A stretch of DNA of 63,806 nt, the filler included, from Licmophora abbreviata (lineage: Eukaryota): assembly GCA_900291995.1 (NCBI GenBank). It is 11 parts of 11 records of this genome, joined end to end, with 100 filler letters (N's around TTAATTAATTAA, not from the genome) between each part and the next. Parts side by side here need not be neighbours in the genome. Positions count along the whole stretch, not along the records: positions 36,132 to 45,997 come from OLMU01004180.1; 10 more parts are not named here. The stretch is one strand, 5' to 3'. Under the pieces are notes generated by a model, which worked only from the letters and a program-made list of their open reading frames with translations, ran no database searches and was not told where the DNA came from. Shown here piece after piece: positions 30,404 through 44,225 of this stretch. How positions within the stretch are numbered: position 1 is the stretch's first letter; each line of letters begins with the position of its first letter. The position numbers and the translations under genes are program-made.

Positions 30404-32045
30404 TTAGTCGAACGATCCATACGAACTATCGGTATCAGTGCCTGTAGTACGAAGGGTCGCGGGCCGGTAGTTGGACTTTTCCGGAGATTCCGTCAGGGGC
30501 CGGTAGTTTGTCCTCACTCCGAGAGTTTCGGGCATGAACTGAAAGAGTAGAACTGGAATGAATGAAATCACAAGTGACGCTGTCAAGCTAGCGACATGAC
30601 CAACCTTTTCCACCGCCATTTGGCCAAAATAGTTGGAAAGCGTCGCTCCGAGACCAAAGAACGATGCGATCACGCCCACTGTGCGATCCATGGAATATAA
30701 TATATATATGTGAGAAAATGTGCATCGGCGACCGAAACAATCTCCGAGCGACATTGAATAGAACTCACTCAATACGTTGAAACGACCGGTCCCAAAGGTA
30801 ATGTCTGCCACCAGGTAAGGCTGTACGAGGCCAATCAAGCCTCCACCTAGCCCATCCAAGACTTGAGTTGACAAGAGAGCTGCATTGCCTGCGTCTTTTA
30901 GCAATATAATGAGCGCACATCTCAGGGGGAGAGACGCAAGGCCCGCTAGGAACAGAGGTTTCCTTCCAACACCGCGAAGAGTTAGTTTGTCCCCGACATA
31001 AGTGGCTGCGGCCATTGTGACTTGCGCTGTAACAATGGCTCCTGCGACCAGAGGAATAGCAAGTTTTGAGTTGCCACCATTCGCCTCGTCCTGGCCCATC
31101 AGCTCACCAAGGACAAGTAGCACATTCGCGTTTGCGAAGCTGGAAATGCGACGACAACAAGCACAGTGAGTTACCGGGATTATCACCACAACATTGATTC
31201 AAGAGGTGGTTTCGTATACACAGATAAATTCAGGGCAGTGGAAGTATTCCAGCAACTCACTGAAAGAAGAAGCCAGTCATGCATAGAATCACACTTTTGC
31301 TATCGGCAAAGACTTTCCAGTAAGATGCAGCTTCGGGCATCTCATCGTCTGTAGTATCCACCTCAGTAGATTCCTCGCCTTCCAACTCCTCCATGTACCC
31401 TTGCTCGTCCATCGCAACCTTGCCCGCAAACCCACGTCCCATTCTTGGGTCTCCCTGAGGCAAGTAGAGGACAAAGAAGCACGCCAGAAGCGCCGATGCC
31501 CCAATGACGAGAAAGCAGTATTTGATATGGGGGTATAGGACAAAGGATACCAATCCCGCCAAGACGGCAGCCGCAACCGAACCAATGTGCCCCCACAAGA
31601 TGTTGGAGGCCATGACGGCATCGAAGTGGCGTGGGCCGAAGGTTGCCAGAGTGAGTGCTGCTAGACAGGGTCCGAGAAAGGAGGCTGTGACGCCCTCTGC
31701 AATTTTGGCAGTGAAGATCAATGCGTGATCGGTATTTCCCTTGTGCACGAGTAGAATGGTGGATGCCGACAGCGCAGTCATGAGACTGGCTACCGCCAAG
31801 AAGATGCGGCGATCGACCGTGGTCTTGTCGACCCAGTCACCGGCCCAGGGCTGAATGACCAGAGCTGTAAAGCCCATGAGACTCAGGGCCAATCCAACAC
31901 TGCCCTCGTTCCAGCCCACGCCAACGAGGTAGATTCCTTGAAAAATGTTGAGGCCATCTCCAAGCTGACCGAGTGCTAGACTCACAAGGAGAAAGGCTAA
32001 TTTGGGTGACAGCAGTCGTCGCGTTGAGGGACCATTTTCCATCAT
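30404..32045 (-). CDS. MFS transporter, 3 exons
   Basis: About 12 TM; QPWAGDWVDKTTVDRR (motif-A-like), WGHIGS, FF|HFANANVL, GRKPLFL, QVLDGLGGG, ADITFGTGRFNV. Confidence 0.92.
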
Positions 32046-32547
32046 CCTGTTGAAACAGGCTACTGTAGAAACCTCGTTGGTCTTGACTGGTGATAGGAAA
32101 GCAACGCAAGCAGGATACTTGCCTGTCTTCTGTTGAATATACTCCAACAATGCTGTGTGTTGTGTGATGGGTGACGAGTTGTTCCTATGATTTCTCCATT
32201 TCTCACGCATCACATCCACTCGGATTTTTCCAGAGAGCGCGCCATGCGGAGTTTTAAATTTGAGACGCCCAAGTAATGTCATAGACACGCTTGGATGAAG
32301 TAGACATTTATGTATGCACTCATATGACCTACAAAGATGAATACAGGAACGGAAAGGTCAATCCCACAACGTTATTTTTCGAGACGGCAAAGCCACCTTC
32401 GTCCTACAAGAAAAATCGAATCCATTTCGATTTTTTGTCATTTTCTTTGGACTCTCGACAGCTGGACAGCCACAACCGCAACCAGCTGCATCACTTGAAT
32501 TACTACAACTCTTTAAGATTGGATCGATCGAGGACACTGTATTTCCG

Positions 32548-34450
32548 ATGGATTCCTACTCCCTGTAAGTTTAGAAATGCTTGAGTCGGGAGCTGGGTAG
32601 GAGCGAGTGTGCCGTTGCGCTCGATGAAGCCATGCATCGTTGCTCACGGACTTTTTCTCGTTTTCATTTTTGATACCTCGTATGATACAATCAATTATAG
32701 TCTGCCAGGATCCCCTGGCGACCCCATCAAAGGCTCCTATGGCAGCATTGATACTATGGAAACCCAACCTGGGAATGAATCCTGGTCGGAGGACTCTTCG
32801 GAGGATCCAAGCCCTTCTGCAAGAAGTGATGCTGTCGAGAAAGCGGACAGCGGATCTCCACGCTTTGCCTCCGGCGTTGCCATTGCACCTGGGTATGGGT
32901 CTCCCGTACGCCTCCTCCGGTCCAGCCAAGGAGGCGCCTTCGAGGATGGCGATCTGACCTCTCCTCTGAAAGCCCTGGCGGAAAGGACTCACATTCCTGT
33001 TGCTGACGAGCATGGCCATCTTGCTCACTACCCCGGCGAGGAAGAGAGCCATCTGCGTGGAAGCAAGTACCTCGACGAACAAGATAAGAAGGAAGCCTCT
33101 CAGTCGATTCTTGTATCTGGCATCACAGGTTTCAAGTGTCTGTACTCCTTCTGCCTTTGGCTCTTCTCTGTTGTTATGATCATGTCCGCGCTCTGCACCA
33201 AGCAAACTATCGCCACCGACGCCGGTGTCCCCACCCCCGTCGCCTTCATTATATTCTGGTTCCTCATCGCCTGGCTGGCCAAGATGGAGGGTGGCCAAGC
33301 CTGTTTGGTGGGCCTCCAGCCCATTGACAAAGCGCTCTACGCTGAGACTCACCCTCGAACTCTCATGAGCACGTCCATGGCTCACAAGGGTGACAACATG
33401 GAGCGCTTTATCATCGGGCGCCAATTCTTGGTTTGTCTCGTCGTCTTTGTTACCGACATGATGGCTTCTACTGTCAAGGACGTTTCTGTTCTCGGTCTCA
33501 GCGAGTTCTGGACCAAGAGTTTCCTCGGATCTGGCGTTGCGGTTACCTTGATTGCCATCATGGTGGGTCAATCGGCTCAAGTCAACGCTGCCAACTGCAT
33601 GCTTGACTTCATCAACACGTACTTCATGCTCTTCACGACGTCCTTGTCGCTGATTCTCGACATGTCTGGCCTCTTGCATTCGGTATACCTTGTCCAGATC
33701 CTTTTCTCCAAGTTCACGAACACTCCCATCGAGTCGGACGAGCCCCCGCGCACTGCCAATCAGAACGTTTGGTTCTGGGCACGTGTTGTCTTCTCGTGCG
33801 GCGCCCTCAGCTTCGCTCTCAGCGTGACGCTGTCAGCTCTCTTCCACGGCCAGACCACAATGTACGAGGGAGTTTCGGACATTGTTTCCGTCATCCTCTT
33901 ATTCATTCTTTTGTGCTTTGTCGGTGTGATGGAGGGTATGCAGATTGCTTTGTTTGCCGTCGTGAACTTGCCTCCCGACGAGGTCGAAGGGCACCCCATG
34001 GCTGCCAAGAGCTGCAAGCTCACCTTCACTGGCTCCAACTTGCAGGCTTTCTTGATTGGGCGACAGATGTGTGTGACTTTGTCCATGTTTATGATCGCTC
34101 GTATCACAAGATGCGATGTCAAGGTGGGAGAAGAAACCGTCTTTGGAGTCAGTGAAAGCGTCCAGAACGGCTTCAACACCGGATTGCTTGGAGCCGTCAT
34201 CACCACCGTTATCGGATCTCTTGCATGGCGTATTATTGCATCTTCATTCCCGGTTGCGTTTTTGTCCAACCCGGTCGTCTACGCGGTTATCCGTCTATGC
34301 CTTGTCGTAGAGTCTTCGGGTATCTGCTCTGTAGCGTGGGTGCTTGCAGTAGTGATGAAGCAAATAGTTGGCTACCAACTGGATGAGGTGTACATTGGCA
34401 CCCCTGAAGAACGGGCAGCCGCTGCAAAGAAGGTCGACGGGGACGTTTGA
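32548..34450 (+). CDS. SIT: Silicon (silicic acid) transporter; exon 1 32548-32564, intron 32565-32700
   Basis: Four GXQ motifs (MEGGQ, FIIGRQF, MEGMQIA, FLIGRQ), CMLDFIN, SGLLHSVYL, LAWRIIASSFPVAFLSNP, DEVYIGTPEER; about 10 TM. Confidence 0.97.
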
Positions 34451-34633: not shown

Positions 34634-35883
34634 TCATCTCGTAGGTGAAGACTTGCAGACCAGTATGGATAAACAGTCCGCTTTCAGCTCGAAAGTAGAA
34701 AGCTCCACGCAGTTGATGCTTGAAAAGATATCTTGAAGGCCACCATAAAACTCATCGTGTGCCCTCTTCCCTCTCTGCTGATAGGAGAACACAACTTCCA
34801 ATGGTGTCTTGGCTTCCTTCAAATACCTACTGATCGTGCTTAGAAGTGGGGCGACCAATTCTTCAATCCAAACGCAGTCGGCCACAAGGATGACGTCCGC
34901 CTGCCAAGGATGAACGGCGGTATCGGCAGCAGCAATCGATGCGCCAAGCTCTGCCATCGTTGGAGGATTGAACCAGTCACAGCTTCGACACTTGACTTGC
35001 TCACATCCTCTTTCAAAAACCTCGTTCCTATGCCGATCGACGTTCTCCAGCATCAGAGGCAGCGCGTAGGGCAAGTCTGTCAGGATCGTGTGCGCAGCTC
35101 CCAATAAACCCGCAGCAATTCCGACCAAGCCACACCCGGCCCCGAGCTCTAAGACGCGCCGTGATCGCACCTATCATTGATGTGAAAGCGATGAGAGACG
35201 CAGATCATTGTTAGAGAACTATACGATAGAGAAGGGTCCAAGTAAAGGGCATGTGCGCTCTGACGCTCTTACTGCCTACGCTCACCATCTCTGGTTGGTA
35301 TTCGAGGTACTTCGCCCTGTATCACATGTGTCCGAGAAGGGAGGAACAGATGGCAGGATATCAGCAAACTAGCACCCCATGTTTTAACAGCAGGTTAACC
35401 AGTGATCTTCCATCGCACGTACAGAAGTATAGCGCCATCCCATACGTTCAAACCTGTCCCGGCACCCGCGATGTTGAACCTTTCTTTCACTAGCACTAGT
35501 TTGCCGGCAAGCTTGATTCCCTTGGCCGCATCGTATGGAATAAAGCGGCCCATTAGAGCAAGTCGACCGCCTTGCTCGCTCGTATCTTCAATAGAAATAG
35601 AGCATCGCACTCGTTTGCCAAAGATCACTGTAACGTCTTCTTCTTTCAATTCGGGGCTCGAAAGCGAAACGAACTCGCACCGGCTGCTATCATAGATTTC
35701 AACAGTCAGCTTGGCTTGACTTGTGACATCATCATAACCTACTTGGCGAAGGAGTTCAGAACGAAGAAGTTCGCCCGTTATCTTTCCCTCTGAGATGATC
35801 CGCGTCCTTACTTTCCGTCGCTCAGTGGTTCTTCCGTCGCAGCTAGGGAACTCAACCACGCCTACGATTTCCTTCTCCTCCAT
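34634..35883 (-). CDS. METTL21/EEF1A-type lysine methyltransferase (Methyltransf_16-like), 3 exons
   Basis: GTGLNVWDGAILL|AKYLE, RVLELGAGCGLVGIAA, ILTD, CDW, DVILVADCVW. Confidence 0.9.
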
Positions 35884-36031: not shown

Positions 36032-36131
36032 NNNNNNNNNNNNNNNNNNNNNNNNNNNNNNNNNNNNNNNNNNNNTTAATTAATTAANNNNNNNNNNNNN
36101 NNNNNNNNNNNNNNNNNNNNNNNNNNNNNNN
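36032..36131. other. Artificial scaffold spacer
   Basis: N-linker-N. Confidence 0.99.
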
Positions 36132-36342: not shown

Positions 36343-38320
36343 CTAGTAGACTTTAGTAAGTCTGTCAACTAGATCTGCCTTGTTTCCACTCACAGGCAAT
36401 CCGGCGTCACGGAGTCGATCTTTCAATTCGACAACTGTCAGAGAGGTATAGTCCACAATCTCACTTTCCGACTGTTCGTTGCTACTACCGTCGTCCTCTA
36501 AGATTGCTTCCAGCTCTGCATCGATGTCGAGGTCAGATGGCTCGTTCTGGACATTGGATTGATTCCCATTCGCGGCATAGCCTTCGTCAGGACCGTCAAC
36601 TCTCCACTCTCGTGTTCGATCGTCGACAAGCACTGCATACTCTTCTCGAAGCTCGTCACGGATAGTGTCAGCTACATCGTAGTCACGGTTCTGCTTTGCC
36701 TCCATGCGCCGTGCCAGACTCTCCTGGATGTACGATACCGTGTCTGGGTCCAACGATGGACTTCCAACTGGAACGTACTCATCACTGAGCACCCTCCACT
36801 CAAACGAAAAGTCGTCGATACTAAGCGAGTACGTTTCACGCAGCTCATCTCGAATAGAATCCGCCAAGTCAAAATTCCTCCCTTTCTTTGCTTCCGTCCG
36901 CTCGGATAGCATCGACGTGATGGTGGAAACATCTTCGTCCGATAGGTCTCCGCCGCCCCTACGGACCCACTCTTTGGAAGGCGGACCCTGACTTCGCCCA
37001 AACTCACCTCCGACCGACCATTGCCGACGCTTATCGTCCAGCTCAACATTCCAGTCTTCTCGAAGCTCATCTTGTAGATCGTCTGCAACTTCGTAGTCTC
37101 TCTTTTTTCTAGCAGCCGCGCGGAGTGACATCAGATTCAAGACCGTCTTCGTATCCTCCGGCGAAAGAGATTCCGAGAACTCGGACTGAGAATAGTCTCT
37201 CGATGCTCCTTCACGCCCATCTCGTTCCGATAGGTCGGCAAAGGGCTCGCCGTCAGCCCTCCAAACTTTTCGCCTGTCATGAATAAAGACGCCGTTGCTG
37301 ATGAGCTCTGCCTGGATACTATCCGCCTGCGCAAATCTCCGATTCATCTTGCACTGAAGTCGTTCAGCAATGAGACTGTGAATCTCATCCTCTGGAAGAG
37401 TCGATGTGATTGGCCCGGCGTCCGGGGCTGGGTAGTAATCGTGTCCGTGGGGACCGAAATCAGTACGTGACCCGCGTTGCCGACCTGGCTTGCTAGAGGG
37501 AGAGTTTCCCGTGTAGTGGTCGCCAAAGGGTACACCATCGGCACGCCACTCCTTGCGTCCATCGTGCAGAAAGACCCCATCGTCTGCAAGGTCGGCTTGA
37601 ATCTGATCCGCGTTTCTAAAATCACGAGAGAGTTTGCATTGAAGCCGCTCCGCGATACGTTTGTGTATCTCTTCGTCCGACAGGGATGATCCGGAGGAAC
37701 CAGCATCCTGAGACTCCGAATAGTCATGTCCAAGAGGTCCAAAGTCTCTGACCCTCTGCGGTTTACGACGATTCTGCGATGGCCTTCGCATGCCGCTGCC
37801 GCTCTTGCTACACCCGCTCCTCCATGTCTTTTCTCTATCCCAGACCATGACGCCATAGTTTTGGATCAAATCGTCTCGAATATCATCAGCGACGTCAAAC
37901 TGACCGGTCTTTCTAGCTTGCAGACGCTCGGAAAGAAGCGCATCGACTGCATCCACGTCAATATTGCTGTTGTCCGACGATGTGTCGCGTACGTAGTCGT
38001 GACTACCACCAGTAGAACCTTGTGTTCTACCACGCCTACCGTTGGACATTGCATTGTCAGCCTTGTCCTCCCACTCGGATGGATCGAAATCAGCATACCA
38101 GTCATCATAGTCATCACCTTTTTGCTCGTCCTTGGAGGAGGTGCTGCTGCCCAGTGTCCGTCAGCAAGCGAGCAGAAGAAGTATCATGAAGCCGCCGGTA
38201 GGACAAGTAGTCGTGATGGAAAGTCAGGGAGTTTGAAATGCCGAACGAAGAGACACATCGTGCACTGGTGACCAGGAGTACCGCTACTATGAGCTCGATG
38301 CTGGTAAAAGGAAACGTCAT
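36343..38320 (-). CDS. Protein with six tandem CysRS C-terminal (anticodon-binding)-like repeats and a C-terminal SAP domain; probably plastid-targeted; apparent frameshift ~38115-38170
   Basis: Repeat consensus I..L+.ER..A+..R.F..AD.I.D.L...GV.+.D....WR; SAP YTSLTVVELKDRLRDAGLPVSGNKADLVDRL; the upstream frame gives MTFPFTSIELIVAVLLVTSARCVSS-FG. Confidence 0.8.
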
Positions 38321-38783
38321 CTTTCCAACGGCAGCGACGAGGTACTGTGCACTGTTCAGGTGAGTCCGATGCGATGATGTGCGATGTGATGTTTGATGTG
38401 ATCCGCACAATCTTTTCTGCAAAAGTTTGGCGCGAAATCCGCAGTCAGATTTGGTGTGGGTGGCTCTCGCATTTGGGTTATGAGTTTCTTGCTTCGCGCG
38501 TTTTCTCGTAGCTCAAAAATTACGGGGTTCACAAGGCGAAGTCTTTAGTAGTCATTCGGAAAGAGTAGTTCGTTTCCATTCTCAATTTCAGGAACCCGGT
38601 TCCCTTTTCGGTTTGGGTTTGTCGTTATTCGAGATGGTATCGAACGATGCTGCTGGTAATAAAGCAGAGTAAAGTCATTGAAGCGAGGTCATCGAGAGTC
38701 AAAAAGGCCGGCCGTTGCTTGGGGATTGGACTCAAAAGAGTTGAGAGAGTTATCAGGTCTTTGGATCCGTCGATCGTTCAAGG

Positions 38784-39917
38784 ATGGTAAACTCTGCAAC
38801 AGTCTGCCAGAAGTCGGCCAAGCAGATTAGTCTTGCTGTGTTGGTTGTTCAGAATGTCAGCATCGTCCTCATGATGGGATACTCGAAGACGGTGAGGAAC
38901 TCTGGCTACATTTCCTCTACAGCTGTTCTCACTGCTGAACTGCTGAAGCTACTAATCAACACTGTCATTGAGTCCGTGCGGACTGGAGCGAGCAAGGGAT
39001 CCTTTTCTTCTCAACTTTGGAACTTGGAGACATTCAAATTGGCGGTGCCAGCACTGCTGTATGTCATCCAAAACAACCTCACCTTCCTGGCTCTCGGAAA
39101 CTTGTCAGTGCCTATGTACCAAGTGACTGCTCAAGGGAGGATTCTTACTACGGCTGCTCTCAGTCGTCTGCTCCTCAATAAGAAAATTTCATCCATGCAG
39201 TACGTGTCCCTTGTCCTCCTAGCGTCTGGCGTCGCGGTCATTCAGTTCGCAGCACTGGACAAGTCCACGTTGGAGGATTCTAAAGATACTGACCAAAGCA
39301 CCATGCTAGGTCTCGTTGCTGTGCTCATTTGCTGCTTCACTTCCAGCTTGGCGGGAGTCTACTTTGAGAAAATGGTCAAAAAGTCAAATGATGTGTCGGT
39401 GTACATGCGCAATATACAATTGTCTTCCTGGAGTATTCTGCTGGGTTCCTTCACTGTATTCTTCCACGACTTTGATAACGTCAAGGAGAATGGCTTCTTC
39501 CACGGCTACGATGGACTCGTCTTGGCAATCGTGGTGAACCAGGCCGTCAGCGGACTTACGATTTCACTCGTCATGAAGTACGCTGACAATATCCTCAAGG
39601 GATTCGCAACATCCATCTCGATATTCATTTCCTCAGGCTTGTCGTGGTGGATCATGGATGCACAGCTGGACACGTCGTTTGGGGCAGGGGCTTCCATTGT
39701 TGCCGTCTCAGTTTGGATGTATGCAAAGTTTTCTCCGATGAAGACGAATGCAAACGTGAACCTGGACCAAGCCCCTAAAGGAAACTCGCCGACACTTATG
39801 CTATCGCTGATGGCTGTTCTCGCATTTTGTTTTGTATGCGGATGCATTGCATTCTATGCTCAACTAAGAGAAGGAACCTTTTCGAATGTCAAGTCCATGG
39901 TCAGAAAAGGAGTATAG
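38784..39917 (+). CDS. Nucleotide-sugar transporter (SLC35A, UDP-Gal/UDP-GlcNAc type)
   Basis: STAVLTAELLK, AVPALLYVIQNNL, YQVTAQGRILTTA, SLAGVYFEKMVK, RNIQL, VMKYADNILKGFATS. Confidence 0.95.
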   Translation: MVNSATVCQKSAKQISLAVLVVQNVSIVLMMGYSKTVRNSGYISSTAVLTAELLKLLINTVIESVRTGASKGSFSSQLWNLETFKLAVPALLYVIQNNLTFLALGNLSVPMYQVTAQGRILTTAALSRLLLNKKISSMQYVSLVLLASGVAVIQFAALDKSTLEDSKDTDQSTMLGLVAVLICCFTSSLAGVYFEKMVKKSNDVSVYMRNIQLSSWSILLGSFTVFFHDFDNVKENGFFHGYDGLVLAIVVNQAVSGLTISLVMKYADNILKGFATSISIFISSGLSWWIMDAQLDTSFGAGASIVAVSVWMYAKFSPMKTNANVNLDQAPKGNSPTLMLSLMAVLAFCFVCGCIAFYAQLREGTFSNVKSMVRKGV

Positions 39918-40161: not shown

Positions 40162-41529
40162 CTAGTCGACTTCTCGCACGACGGTCTTCTGTCTCGCGCT
40201 CTGGAACTCGACAGTACCCGGTTTGGAATGCTTGACGCGATTCGCCTGCTTCCGATCGGCACTTTCCTTTTGAATTTGAACAATAGCAGTCTGCTTTTTA
40301 ATGACCTTTGGAATCTTTCGGGATTTTGATATTCTTCTGACTTCCGGGAGGTGCTGATACTTTTGTACAAGTGTCTGGCGATATTGCAGTGATGCCTCTT
40401 CGCGTGCAGTACGCTGTCCCAGTTGTTCACTAGCTCGCGCTTTCCATAGTCGCAAATTGGTATCGTCACTTCCCGATATGATAAACTTATGATCCAACGT
40501 ATAGTGCACAGTAAAGACTCTCTGCATCCGCTTCGAGTGGTAAACATCTCGGGACGCGCCCTTGTGATTTTCGAACATGCGCAAGGTCCGATCGTAGGAT
40601 CCAGTAACAAACTCACGTCCTGTTGGCGACCAGCTGACACATAGAATGGCACCCATGTGACCCTTGAAAATGCGAGTTGGTTGATTCAACTTTCGCATAT
40701 CGAAAGAATACGCATTGTGATCTTCGTTTCCCACGACAAAGTTCATTGGTTCCATTGGGTTCCACTCGAGGCAATTGGAGCGCATCTGCAAAACAGTTTT
40801 GTTCAGTGCCGCACCAGCTCGTGTGTCGTGAAGACCAATGCCTCGGTCCGCAGAACAGTGAGCTAGTAAATTTCGCTCGGCAGGGTTGAATCGAACGACG
40901 TTGACAGTGTCGTCGCTACCAAACAAATCAGAGTGTTTCTGAATGGGACTACTCCTAGTGGGACTCCAGATACAGACACTCTCGTCGGAGGCTGTTGCGA
41001 ACAAGTCATCGTGCCAATGGTGATCTATCGACTTGAAGGACCCCGAAGTTCTCCATGTTTCGAGGGGTGCATGAGTGCTCGTTCCAGTGTTCTCATCTCG
41101 ACTGCCGTGAACTGACCACAGCTTCACCAAACCGTCATCACTGCAGCTGTAGAATCGTTGACCTTCTCCATCAAAGACAAGGCCTGTAATGAGCCTCGAA
41201 TGTCCTCCAGTCAGCGAGGCAACACGCGATCGACTGGCCAAATCCCAAAGTCGAATCTCTCCGTCGGCAGCTCCCGACACAAAGGGCACAAGCGAGGTTC
41301 GGGACGTGGCAGAAGCTGTCACACCATCCATATGACCTTCTCCGAGGCTCCCAACAAATGGTTTGGCAAACATGCGATCCAATTTCGCTCCTGTGACGGC
41401 GCGGGTGTATTCACGGGCGCGCTGCATGGGATGGGACGAGGGGTCGAGATTTCGAAACTGGCGACGCAAATCGCCAGAGCATTCCCGCTGTGTGGAAGCT
41501 GTCGAACGAGAAAGTGCCTTGACCTTCAT
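40162..41529 (-). CDS. SOF1: DCAF13/Sof1 (SSU processome WD40 protein)
   Basis: RNLDPSSHPMQRAREYTRAV, MFAKPF, WNPMEPMNFVVGNEDHNAYSFDMR, WSPTGREFVTGSYD, VYHSKRMQRVF, SGSDDTNLRLWKARASE. Confidence 0.96.
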   Translation of the reverse strand: MKVKALSRSTASTQRECSGDLRRQFRNLDPSSHPMQRAREYTRAVTGAKLDRMFAKPFVGSLGEGHMDGVTASATSRTSLVPFVSGAADGEIRLWDLASRSRVASLTGGHSRLITGLVFDGEGQRFYSCSDDGLVKLWSVHGSRDENTGTSTHAPLETWRTSGSFKSIDHHWHDDLFATASDESVCIWSPTRSSPIQKHSDLFGSDDTVNVVRFNPAERNLLAHCSADRGIGLHDTRAGAALNKTVLQMRSNCLEWNPMEPMNFVVGNEDHNAYSFDMRKLNQPTRIFKGHMGAILCVSWSPTGREFVTGSYDRTLRMFENHKGASRDVYHSKRMQRVFTVHYTLDHKFIISGSDDTNLRLWKARASEQLGQRTAREEASLQYRQTLVQKYQHLPEVRRISKSRKIPKVIKKQTAIVQIQKESADRKQANRVKHSKPGTVEFQSARQKTVVREVD

Positions 41530-41815
41530 TCGGAGTGTGAGCAATCAAGTATGTGAAGGGGGGCGATGTTGCTGTGGTGCACGATGAAGTTGTGAGTCAA
41601 GTCGTTGTATCGACTGATGCCCATCATGGAGGAAACTGAAAGGTGAGCGGGGCATGCACGGAACAAAACCGCGCCCTCACCAGCACTTTGAATGGCGAGC
41701 AGAGACCAGGTCATGAGCCATAATTTGCGACCTGGTGGTACGGACAGACAGCGCATTGGGTTTTGTCCAAGAGCCCCGGAAGCGCACTGAACATTGCACC
41801 TCCGCCGATCCGACG

Positions 41816-44225
41816 ATGGTGATGAAGGTGATGGTGCCCTCCAGGAGGCCTCTCTTGCGCCTCTTTGCATGGACACTCCTCTTGTGGGTCATCCCTTATG
41901 TTTTGGATGCGGTATCCTTGAACTTTGAGACAGAAATTAGCATGCAGGACGGACCGGGTAATCTAGACGAAGGCAGACGTCTGTTTCAGCTCCAAGACTA
42001 TGATCGTGCGGCCATGCACTTCTGGAGGGCCGTCCTGATGCAAATGACGTCTGGGGACGCGTACACTGTGGAAGAATGTTTTCCCCAGTTCATGAAATGC
42101 TTCTCTATTCAAGGAAACTGGCCGATGGATACGTCTATGTGGCACAAGAGAGTTTCGGCCGTGGCCAACTGGACATGGCCAAAATGTATGTCGACCAAGC
42201 TCTCATGGTCGATGCCAATCACGACGAAGCTTTGTTGCTTCAAAAGCAGATAGGAGTCGTGGATCCTGCTAGTGACGCGCTGGAGGGCGACTTCCAGGAG
42301 GATGAAGAGGACGACGAGCTGGCCGGGATGAGCCCTGAGGCTCTCTACGAACTCGGCACCAGACTGTTCGGGGACGAACGTGACTACGAGGGCTGTGCCG
42401 ATGTCTTTGAGCTTGCTTGCCAAAAGTCAAATCAGCGATTGGGTCCAGCTTGTTCCAATGCAGTCTACTGTCGCAACATGATTCTCGATTGGGGATTCAA
42501 TGGTACTCAGTTCGAACAGGACATGGATCGCATCGCTACCATTACCAAGCTGGAGACCAGTCAGTACCGACAAGTCAAACCAGACGGATCTTTTGTCTGG
42601 CAGCGAGCCACTTCTACCCACCCCCATATGATGCTTGGATACCCAGTAGATCCGATGCTAAAGCGATATGTCACGGAATCGGTGGCCATCATGGATGAGT
42701 TGATGGCGAGGGTCATGCCTGGAAACGGCGAACCACAAGTCCGGCCTCTTCCGGATGGTCTTCCTTTTGATCCCGTGGAAGATCGAGCGACTTGTATCTT
42801 TGACAAAGCCTCGGCAGCAGACTACAGAATCCGAGTCGGCTTTGTCGCTTCGGGCTTCAAGTCTAAAGCTGTCCTCTATCTGTCACACGACATGTTTCGC
42901 TTCTTTGACAAATCACGATTCGAAGTACACATATTCTCGATGGGACCACCTGACAATCCTTTATTTATCCAGCATGGAATGCGAGGCGTTGACTGGAGAG
43001 AGAGGGTTAAGGCAAATGTCGATCACTTTCACGACGTGGAGGCTTTGAAAATGGACCACATTGCCTTGGCTCGTTTCATTCATAACCAGAAAATACACAT
43101 TCTCATCGAATGGGATGGGTATGCTCGACAGGGAGAACGCGCTCAAGGCCTCTTTGCTCTTCGACCTGCACCAATTCAAATCTTGCATCAAGAATATCTT
43201 GGAACGAGCGGAGCACAGTATGTGGATTATCTCTTCACAGACAAAGTAACGTCGCCACCACACCTCGAGCACCTCTACACGGAAAAGTTCATTTACATGC
43301 CAAACCATTTCTTCTCCAAGGGTCATGCAGTTCAGAGAGAAGTTCGGGCGCCGACTTATGACTACCCGGACCAGGCAGATCCATATGAGGTTGGACGGGC
43401 AGTCCGCATGTGAATCGATGCCTAGCTCCTGATGGCGAAGGACCGCAGATGCCCTCCATTGTTTACTGCAATTTCAACAAGTTTCTGAAAAACAATCCCG
43501 AAACTGTCCGTAGCTGGATTCGTATCTTGCGTGAAGTTCCGGACTCGATGCTTTGCTTGCTGGAAAATCCAGATGTTGGAGTGCCATACCTTCGAAAGTT
43601 TGTCCATGAGGCCAGCGGAACGTCAAATAGCGATTCGGATGAGGAGAGCTTTGTTGAGGGGGATGGCGTCGAACTAAACTCTCGGATACACTTTCTCAAG
43701 TGGGAGGCGAATCCTTTTGACCATCAAATGAGAAATCAAGACTTCTGCAACGTCATGCTTGATTCATATCCTTACAATGGTCACACTGTCGCTCAGGATG
43801 CACTATATGGCGGTGTTCCAATCGTTACAAGGAGTGACGGCGATGACATGAGCTCGCGAGTAAGCACCTCCGCGAATGTCGTGTTGGGAATGGAGGAACT
43901 GAATGCGTACGACGGCCCACAGCAGTACGAAGACATCGCAATAGAGCTTGGCAGAAAACCGGCGAAACTTCAGGCACTGAGAACAAGGTTGATTGGGACT
44001 GCCCTCCAGAGGAATCCTATGCATGCTTACTGGGATGTGCCGCGCTATGTAAAGAGTTTCGAGAGCGGCTTGGCGATGGTATGGGAGCGCTACTTGTCAG
44101 GCGAGTCTCCAGATCACTTGACAATCGAGGAGACAGACGAGACAAAGCAGGGAACCAATGACGAAGTGCTTCTTGCGCATCCCCCCGGCGGGAAGCAATC
44201 AGTAACTCACTATGGTGAGCTCTAG
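41816..44225 (+). CDS. GT41 (OGT/SPINDLY-like) glycosyltransferase with TPR-like region and N-terminal signal peptide; two 1-nt frameshifts (~42116, ~43393)
   Basis: RIRVGFVASGF, FDKSRFEVHIFS, IHILIEWDGY, LFALRPAPIQI, YLGTSGAQYVDYLFTD, YCNFNKFLK, WIRILREVPDSML, LDSYPYNGHT, GVPIVT, SRVSTS. Confidence 0.9.

Follow-up and report, generated by a model that had tools for sequence, protein, structure and literature searches.

A gene of the diatom Licmophora abbreviata (GenBank assembly GCA_900291995.1) encodes a protein formed by six tandem domains, homologous in sequence and fold to the anticodon-binding domain at the C-terminus of cysteinyl-tRNA synthetase (CysRS), and by a SAP domain at its C-terminus. 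The gene is located in a stretch of 63,806 nucleotides (nt), filler included, in which 11 parts of 11 genomic records are joined end to end (hereafter the window, to whose numbering all positions refer), within the part that comes from OLMU01004180.1 (36132 to 45997). We propose that this protein is an array for binding RNA in the plastid, anchored to nucleoid DNA through its SAP domain, a reading to which we give an even chance, with a mechanism that we infer from the evidence set out below. The features of the gene and of its product are the following (residues numbered along the main frame; pLDDT, predicted local distance difference test; POS1 to POS6, scores against the position-specific unit profiles described below).

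36343..38160, minus strand: main open frame, 605 codons from stop to stop (605 aa), stop codon at 36343-36345, no intron needed
38159..38320, minus strand: upstream frame, with an ATG at 38320-38318, a signal peptide of about 25 aa, a predicted cleavage site VSS/F and the start of a Ser/Thr-rich transit-like stretch
38158..38159, minus strand: frameshift site, where two identical letters stand in a row (GG in coding-strand reading); with one letter dropped the signal-peptide frame joins the main frame
38068..38115, minus strand: conserved acidic-aromatic N-terminal motif of the mature protein, DDYDDWYADFDPSEWE (consensus D.YDDWYADFDPS in 76 aligned proteins)
37810..38016, minus strand: unit 1, aa 49-117, position-1 type, preceded by S-HDY (POS1 score 125.3, pLDDT >90)
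37744..37809, minus strand: linker 1, basic and flexible, aa 118-139, net charge +7 (pLDDT <50 at 123-134)
37534..37743, minus strand: unit 2, aa 140-209, position-2 type, carrying an invariant FGP.GHDY motif (POS2 score 132.3)
37249..37458, minus strand: unit 3, aa 235-304, again of position-2 type (POS2 129.3, all other positions <=49.8)
37006..37215, minus strand: unit 4, aa 316-385, position-3/4 type, ambiguous (POS3 84.5, POS4 86.9)
36784..36990, minus strand: unit 5, aa 391-459, position-5 type, preceded by W.RRGGGDLSDED (POS5 105.0)
36592..36795, minus strand: unit 6, aa 456-523, position-6 type, abutting unit 5 (POS6 101.6)
36457..36591, minus strand: acidic disordered linker, aa 524-568, net charge -14 (pLDDT <50 at 525-547 and 556-566)
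36346..36456, minus strand: SAP domain, aa 569-605 (Pfam E 3.1e-13)

Relation to the CysRS anticodon-binding domain

A first-pass annotation, made from the nucleotide sequence alone, had described six repeats of about 65 residues resembling the C-terminal region of CysRS, and both the number of repeats and the resemblance were borne out. The units align over approximately 68 residues, with pairwise identities of 24-59%, and end at aa 114, 206, 301, 382, 456 and 520, each with D..[KR].W[RS]; a six-frame scan of the window with a hidden Markov model (HMM), itself built from these units, recovered exactly these six and none elsewhere. The HDY motif reported before the first three units was also found (S-HDY, G-HDY and G-HDY), the same alignment column being occupied by RDY, KEW and DEY in units 4, 5 and 6. 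In the loop preceding unit 2, FGP.GHDY, residues F140, G141, P142, G144, H145 and D146 are invariant in the 76 aligned diatom proteins. The CysRS structure does not account for so strict a conservation of this DFGP.GHDY loop.

The relation to CysRS was identified at the sequence level by several profile methods. Pfam CysS_C (PF23493) matched with 58.7 bits (cut-off 23, E 6.1e-16) in three stretches, and the NCBIfam cysS models matched in 5-6 stretches, only at C-terminal profile positions (e.g. 414-450 of 466), the cysteinyl-tRNA synthetase equivalog TIGR00435 not being reached (76.6 bits, cut-off 340). When compared with the PDB, a profile of the six units matched the C-terminal ends of Coxiella CysRS (3tqo, 409-460 of 462, E 1.2e-7), of E. 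coli CysRS (1li5/1u0b, 405-459 of 461, E 5.3e-6) and of two further CysRS (E 2.8e-5 and 9.3e-5), with a fifth at E 0.058. A single-sequence phmmer search against the PDB returned only the SAP domain of Tho1 and no CysRS.

The fold leads to the same assignment. In an AlphaFold2 model of the 605 residues, built with the alignment of 76 sequences (mean pLDDT 80.5; predicted template modelling score, pTM, 0.44), each unit is modelled with pLDDT above 90, the linkers being disordered, and is formed by a short strand, which contains the HDY motif, two helices and a beta-hairpin. The same elements were obtained for a single unit modelled from the six-row alignment (pLDDT 85.1). VIA-align placed Borrelia CysRS (3sp1_B, 422-480) first among 48,161 representative chains for the single unit (Z 6.3, 55 aligned residues, 29% identity), as the sole match with Z>=5, and, for the full model, it placed first the E. 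coli CysRS-tRNA complex (1u0b_B, 402-461), superposed on unit 6 (model residues 463-522) with Z 7.3 and a root-mean-square deviation of 2.8 A over 58 aligned residues. Foldseek retrieved nothing from the PDB at E<=1e-3 with either the full model or the single unit. The Z values are middling on their own; taken together with the E-values of the sequence comparisons they settle the homology, and the units are homologous in sequence and fold to the anticodon-binding domain at the C-terminus of CysRS.

Other matches were set aside as chance or composition, namely eIF3g (unit profile against the PDB, E 0.04-0.55) and the Pfam rows of Terminase_2, CPP1-like, Ubiquitin_3 and Flg_hook, for which no stretch passed alone. 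BamA POTRA1 has the order strand-helix-helix-strand-strand in common with the unit when the HDY strand is included, with Z of 4.0 and 3.4 only, a Foldseek probability of 0.02-0.09 and no sequence signal; given such low Z values, the likeness is probably a convergence of a simple topology.

The catalytic part of a synthetase is absent, as the first-pass annotation had stated: neither HIGH-like nor KMSKS-like patterns were detected by regular expressions in the protein, nor did any catalytic-domain Pfam entry match it, and the same expressions applied to 121 family proteins returned none (HIGH-like) and two (KMSKS-like). Judged by this domain content, the protein has no aminoacylation activity, and the name 'cysteinyl-tRNA synthetase' carried by many of its JGI-sourced relatives is a mis-annotation, since the catalytic domain is lacking. 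In practical terms, many JGI-sourced entries bearing this name are no synthetases.

SAP domain

The terminal SAP motif proved to be genuine. Pfam SAP (PF02037) matched aa 570-603 with 49.4 bits (cut-off 23.9, E 3.1e-13), the yeast Tho1 SAP domain shares 59% identity over 34 aligned columns (phmmer E 0.004), and the SAP structures of hnRNP-U-like, 3'hExo, Hcc-1, PIAS1, Tho1, Ku70 and DEK superpose on aa 560-605 with Z of 3.9-7.0. Among these superposed domains, those of Ku70, DEK and 3'hExo were solved on DNA or RNA.

Conservation of the guanine-34 contact residues

According to two reports on E. coli CysRS, its anticodon-binding domain comprises residues 403-461, Arg427 and Asp436 establish hydrogen bonds with G34 in the 1U0B structure, in which G34 is stacked on Trp432 and a water network is held by Asp436 and Arg423, and changes at positions 427, 432, 436 and 439 shift the anticodon preference (PMC12684709; PMC13449415). 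We placed these contact columns by aligning the unit profile to CysRS and mapped the G34 contacts in 733 units of 121 proteins. The Arg423 column contains arginine in 99% of the units, the Arg427 column lysine or arginine in 98%, the Trp432 column phenylalanine or tyrosine in 99%, the Asp436 column aspartate in 99% and the Arg439 column arginine in 77% and glutamine in 18%. The G34-contact columns are the most conserved of the unit and are invariant at all six positions, with the exception of the Arg439 column, in which glutamine is present at position 2 and arginine elsewhere. By residue identity, this conserved contact set fits a retained guanine-type pocket.

The first-pass annotation had proposed a modular RNA reader analogous to PPR and OPR proteins. 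This analogy is weak, because each unit is an alpha/beta domain of its own, set apart from the next by a flexible linker and not stacked into a helical solenoid, in agreement with the pTM of 0.44, and because the G34 contacts do not vary; their invariance across the six positions argues against a PPR-like code there, and the alignment lends no support to a combinatorial code at these contacts.

A diatom family with a fixed unit order

A search for homologues of near length, in which 8000 candidates were scored, retrieved 247 proteins at E<=1e-3 (best 3.9e-171), with identities of 34-48% among the 120 listed; the approximately 250 homologues cover 55-100% of the main frame. All named sources are diatoms (Phaeodactylum, Seminavis, Pseudo-nitzschia, Amphora, Asterionellopsis, Chaetoceros, Proboscia and Corethron), and the family appears to be conserved throughout diatoms, including early-branching centric genera. 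The Phaeodactylum members (B7FZI9 and B7S3N1) are named 'predicted protein' and the Seminavis entry 'expressed unknown protein'; since MMETSP transcriptome entries are present among the relatives, the family is transcribed in other diatoms. Relatives of 1060-3025 aa were sought and none was found, which is weak evidence, and a search for shorter ones retrieved mostly fragments. No paper on the architecture of a CysRS-domain array with SAP, or on the family, was found in the literature, in line with the earlier statement that no protein of this architecture had been characterised.

The number of units is nearly constant: HMM counts gave six in 100 of the 121 proteins, seven in 15, five in four and four in two. 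Position-specific profiles built from the 99 other six-unit proteins recovered the order 1-2-3-4-5-6 in 96-99 of the 99, a test that is partly circular, since these proteins had also served to train the profiles. The L. abbreviata protein reads 1-2-2-(3 or 4)-5-6. Its unit 3 arose from unit 2 by an old duplication (59% aa identity between the two), and a canonical unit 3/4 is missing, so that six units were kept by a different route than in the 99 other members. All family-invariant residues are present in it, as observed in the alignment of 76 sequences.

Frameshift and probable plastid targeting

The ends of the feature as first annotated, 36343..38320, coincide with the stop codon of the main frame and with the first ATG of the upstream frame. 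The latter has a hydrophobic N-terminus (hydrophobic maximum over 11 aa of 2.78), reads VSS/FG, an [S]-F motif like that of the homologues, and runs as far as about 38117; the main frame is set one base further along. The presequence is thus out of frame with the main frame in the window as given, and the frameshift suspected at about 38115-38170 was located within that bracket, at 38158/38159.

Contigs from four public runs were aligned to the locus, and no joints were seen. One letter at 38158 is missing from a metagenome contig of run X1 that spans 38052-38203 (151 nt, depth 2) and shows no further difference; for run X2, the fit of a contig breaks off exactly at 38158, and run X6, guessed to be RNA, covers only parts outside the frameshift. 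When letter 38158 is dropped, a correction of the frameshift having been called for in the first-pass annotation, the joined reading has 659 codons and zero internal stops and encodes 658 aa, with a signal peptide of 25 aa and a transit-like region of 43 aa that contains 14 Ser and Thr, five Lys and Arg, and four Asp and Glu. The frameshift is very probably an assembly error or a rare allele. An intron was considered as its cause and rejected: a contig from a run tentatively labelled DNA differs by one letter and no joints were present, which favours an indel. The protein is most likely the product, of approximately 658 aa, of an intronless nuclear diatom gene.

Diatom plastid presequences carry an ASAFAP-type motif, the N-terminal signal peptide being cleaved off in front of Phe (or Trp, Tyr or Leu). 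Most homologues with complete N-termini have a signal peptide, [A/G/S]-F, a Ser/Thr-rich stretch and then the conserved DDYDDWYADFDPS. Of the 120 homologues, 114 begin with Met, 67 of these have a hydrophobic maximum above 1.8, and in 64 of the 67 it is followed by [ASGC][FWYL]; many of the homologues that do not pass are gene models starting at the DDWY motif. Judging from these N-termini, the protein is probably targeted to the plastid by a bipartite presequence. The earlier proposal of plastid targeting is likely to hold for the frame joined by dropping one letter, in which VSS/F agrees with the [A/G/S]-F of the homologues; in the window as given, the presequence is out of frame.

The possibility of a decaying or mis-assembled gene, with a real shift, an unjoined signal peptide and a product that starts at an internal Met and is cytosolic or absent, is highly improbable. 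The window as given does contain the shift, no RNA run was found to contain the locus, and a gap of N and linker lies about 210 nt past the stop. Against this, the frame of 605 codons is unbroken and has all family-invariant residues, the extra letter is missing from a contig of an independent run, and the joined frame is free of stops.

Related arrays and their partner domains

The unit profile was also run against 1.84 billion representatives; 6245 proteins matched at E<=1e-3, of which 1129 passed E<=1e-10 and 383 passed E<=1e-30. The arrays reach 10-11 units, the protein with 11 units being from the dinoflagellate Gymnodinium smaydae, and a haptophyte cluster in the Atlas (score 0.79) is taken as a lead only. 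We scanned for partner Pfam domains 119 further representatives among the best 150 of the 383, counting the matches with a stretch of their own. SAP is present in 42 representatives (8 of 30 and 34 of 89), one of which has two SAP domains, and RRM_1 (P0356, E 9.4e-16), Surp (P0349, E 3.4e-10) and an RsmE-type RNA methyltransferase domain (P0288, PF04452, E 3.3e-27) are present in one representative each. The RRM protein likewise starts with a signal peptide and AAF. All the clear partners act on nucleic acids, and this is the chief indirect reason to attribute an RNA role to the array. Ubiquitin_3, Terminase_2 and Flg_hook were discarded as array partners, as no stretch passed alone.

The RsmE-type fusion belongs to a cluster with six members, all metagenome proteins and five of them 888-932 aa long, and may link the arrays to small-subunit rRNA. 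In two of its proteins (P0288 and P0389), about six to seven CysS_C units of the diatom type are fused to the RsmE-type domain. Arrays of 9-11 units lacking SAP were also observed (P0252-P0255, P0280, P0309 and P0340). Among them, P0255 has nine units of the position-2 type behind a mitochondrial-looking N-terminus, and in the G. smaydae protein (P0309) the 11 units end in THTF, not in W, and lie between proline-rich stretches.

Proposed mechanism and alternative explanations

In the mechanism that we propose, the protein would enter the secondary plastid by means of its bipartite presequence, composed of a signal peptide, with cleavage before Phe, and a Ser/Thr-rich transit part. The mature protein would consist of six alpha/beta domains on short or basic flexible linkers, followed by the acidic linker and the SAP domain. 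Each unit may take hold of a nucleotide or loop that is exposed in plastid RNA and probably contains G, with an affinity that would come from multivalency and from the basic linkers, and the SAP domain would keep the protein attached to AT-rich DNA of the plastid. The protein would act in plastid gene expression at the nucleoid, e.g. in the handling of nascent transcripts, rRNA or tRNA. Linkers 1 (+7) and 2 (+2) are the only basic ones, and RG is present in the linkers.

Several observations weigh against an RNA-binding plastid array. The contact residues are core conserved positions of the unit and could be kept for folding alone. The CysRS domain binds the anticodon inside a large enzyme, and autonomous binding by the isolated domain is undocumented in the literature examined. 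The net charge of the protein is -45, with an isoelectric point (pI) of 4.62 and a net charge of -2 to -8 for each unit, an uncommon trait among general binders of nucleic acids. The partner domains amount to guilt by association, the proteins that carry them being paralogous and not orthologous. With respect to targeting, the repair of the frame rests on one contig of 151 nt and depth 2 and on one compatible contig from the same study, and the count of N-termini, in which 64 of the 114 Met-started homologues pass, is a crude tally of hydrophobicity and motif with no control set.

The acidity extends to the family, whose median pI is 4.79. The E. coli CysRS domain has a charge of about -3 by letter count, and multi-domain RNA binders can be acidic. 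Nucleic-acid binding is therefore compatible with such values. Nevertheless, the strong acidity keeps alive a role as protein scaffold, in which the array would be an acidic protein-binding platform or chaperone contacting, e.g., basic nucleoid or ribosomal proteins, and only the SAP domain would touch nucleic acid. The acidic character of every unit, the invariant FGP.GHDY loop, which has no known RNA role, and the order of secondary-structure elements shared with the protein-binding POTRA domains, a weak likeness, are in line with this explanation. However, the G34-contact set is kept, the partner domains of the related arrays are all linked to RNA or DNA, and the POTRA match is far weaker than that with CysRS (Z 7.3) and has no sequence support, so that we regard a protein scaffold as rather unlikely.

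The array could be a small-subunit rRNA or ribosome-biogenesis factor, docking on 16S rRNA or on the 30S subunit as it forms at the nucleoid, the place of plastid ribosome assembly. RsmE methylates U1498 of 16S rRNA, in the decoding centre, and the fusion of a paralogous array of six to seven units to an RsmE-type domain points in this direction, as does the presence of position-specific units, which fit one large structured target. This fusion represents, however, a single family, without orthology to that of the SAP proteins, and a ribosomal role seems quite unlikely.

The units could also recognise the GCA anticodon loop itself, in which case the protein would be a specific binder that sequesters, stores or presents up to six plastid tRNA-Cys molecules at the nucleoid. 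The G34-reading residues kept in 98-99% of the units and the fold match, which spans the whole anticodon-binding domain of the 1u0b tRNA complex, are consistent with such a binder, but the six distinct and conserved position signatures suggest six different partners or sites, and the RRM, Surp and rRNA-type methyltransferase partners of the related arrays are not specific for tRNA-Cys. A binder of this kind likewise seems quite unlikely.

The plastid RNA-binding array that we favour can be extended to a more specific form, in which the six position-specific units would jointly recognise one defined RNA of the plastid, or several tRNA-like loops, and retain it on the nucleoid, each unit reading a short G-containing element as CysRS reads GCA, and in which CysS_C arrays would constitute an unrecognised class of RNA-recognition modules in algae with secondary plastids (diatoms, dinoflagellates and probably haptophytes). 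In this specific form the proposal is speculative and, in our view, unlikely.

Comparison with known systems

The closest known relative of the unit is the C-terminal domain of bacterial CysRS (PF23493; residues ~403-461 in E. coli, 1U0B), with which it shares the sequence family, the alpha/beta fold and the G34 contacts. The diatom array differs in lacking the catalytic, CP, SC-fold and helical-bundle domains, in repeating the unit six times and in adding to each unit a conserved N-terminal strand motif, [H/R/K/D][D/E][Y/W]; it is, moreover, probably plastid-targeted and is followed by a SAP domain.

Other aminoacyl-tRNA synthetase (aaRS) appended domains are reused as RNA platforms outside aminoacylation, such as the tandem WHEP-TRS repeats of metazoan Glu-Pro-tRNA synthetase and the free-standing tRNA-binding domains Trbp111/Arc1p/EMAP II. 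Those domains belong to different families and are not known as organellar arrays or in combination with SAP. Ribosomal protein S1 is likewise an acidic protein with six flexibly linked domains, whose RNA binding is established; the S1 domain has an OB fold, in contrast to the alpha/beta fold of the diatom units, for which RNA binding is our proposal. PPR, OPR and HPR proteins resemble the diatom protein, itself probably plastid-targeted, in being nuclear-encoded, organelle-targeted tandem repeats with a putative RNA role. The diatom unit, however, has approximately 68 aa and a beta-sheet, does not form an alpha-solenoid and keeps the known base-contact residues constant from unit to unit.

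To our knowledge, little has been described on the nuclear-encoded factors that run plastid gene expression in diatoms, and the PEP-associated proteins (PEP, the RNA polymerase encoded by the plastid) and the large PPR/OPR families of land plants do not simply carry over to them. The present family is a concrete candidate for such a factor, being apparently diatom-wide and having a fixed plan of six units with position-specific signatures, a probable plastid presequence and a SAP tail of the DNA-binding type.

In land-plant chloroplasts, pTAC3/PAP1 is described as a nucleoid-located, DNA-binding SAP protein (PMC4080259) that carries PPR repeats (PMC11561172). The likeness is one of analogy only, both being nuclear-encoded proteins of the plastid, probably so in the case of the diatom, that combine SAP with an array of RNA-binding-type repeats: the repeats are unrelated, a PPR solenoid in PAP1 and CysRS-derived alpha/beta beads in the diatom protein, and PAP1 is a structural PEP subunit, whereas nothing links the diatom protein to the polymerase.

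The family reveals the reuse of the anticodon-binding domain of a synthetase as a tandem module, giving rise, from an aaRS-derived module, to a multi-domain protein that is probably organellar and putatively nucleic-acid-binding. If the units bind RNA, a new type of module would be added to the organellar RNA-binding repertoire; and if the joint recognition by six units, unlikely as we consider it, were true, the protein would be a diatom counterpart of pTAC3/PAP1 and a new programmable RNA-binding scaffold.

Genomic context

The 3' flank of the array gene is incomplete, because a joint lies about 210 nt past its stop, formed by N at 36032-36075, the linker TTAATTAATTAA at 36076-36087 and N at 36088-36131. 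On the other side of this joint, the window contains genes for an MFS transporter (31257-32357, minus strand), a silicon transporter (PF03842, E 1e-154; 32585-34450, plus strand) and a lysine methyltransferase (34634-35170, minus strand). The presence of the silicon transporter in the same window, together with the fact that all named homologues are from diatoms, indicates that the gene belongs to a diatom nuclear genome, the first-pass annotation having already assumed a diatom.

At higher positions of the window, genes for a Sof1/WD40 protein (40162-41544, minus strand) and a GT41 glycosyltransferase (42004-43413, plus strand) were identified. A nucleotide-sugar transporter gene (PF04142, E 5e-93; 38745-39917, plus strand) is divergent to the array gene and shares with it an upstream region of about 430-470 nt that extends to the ATG at 38320.

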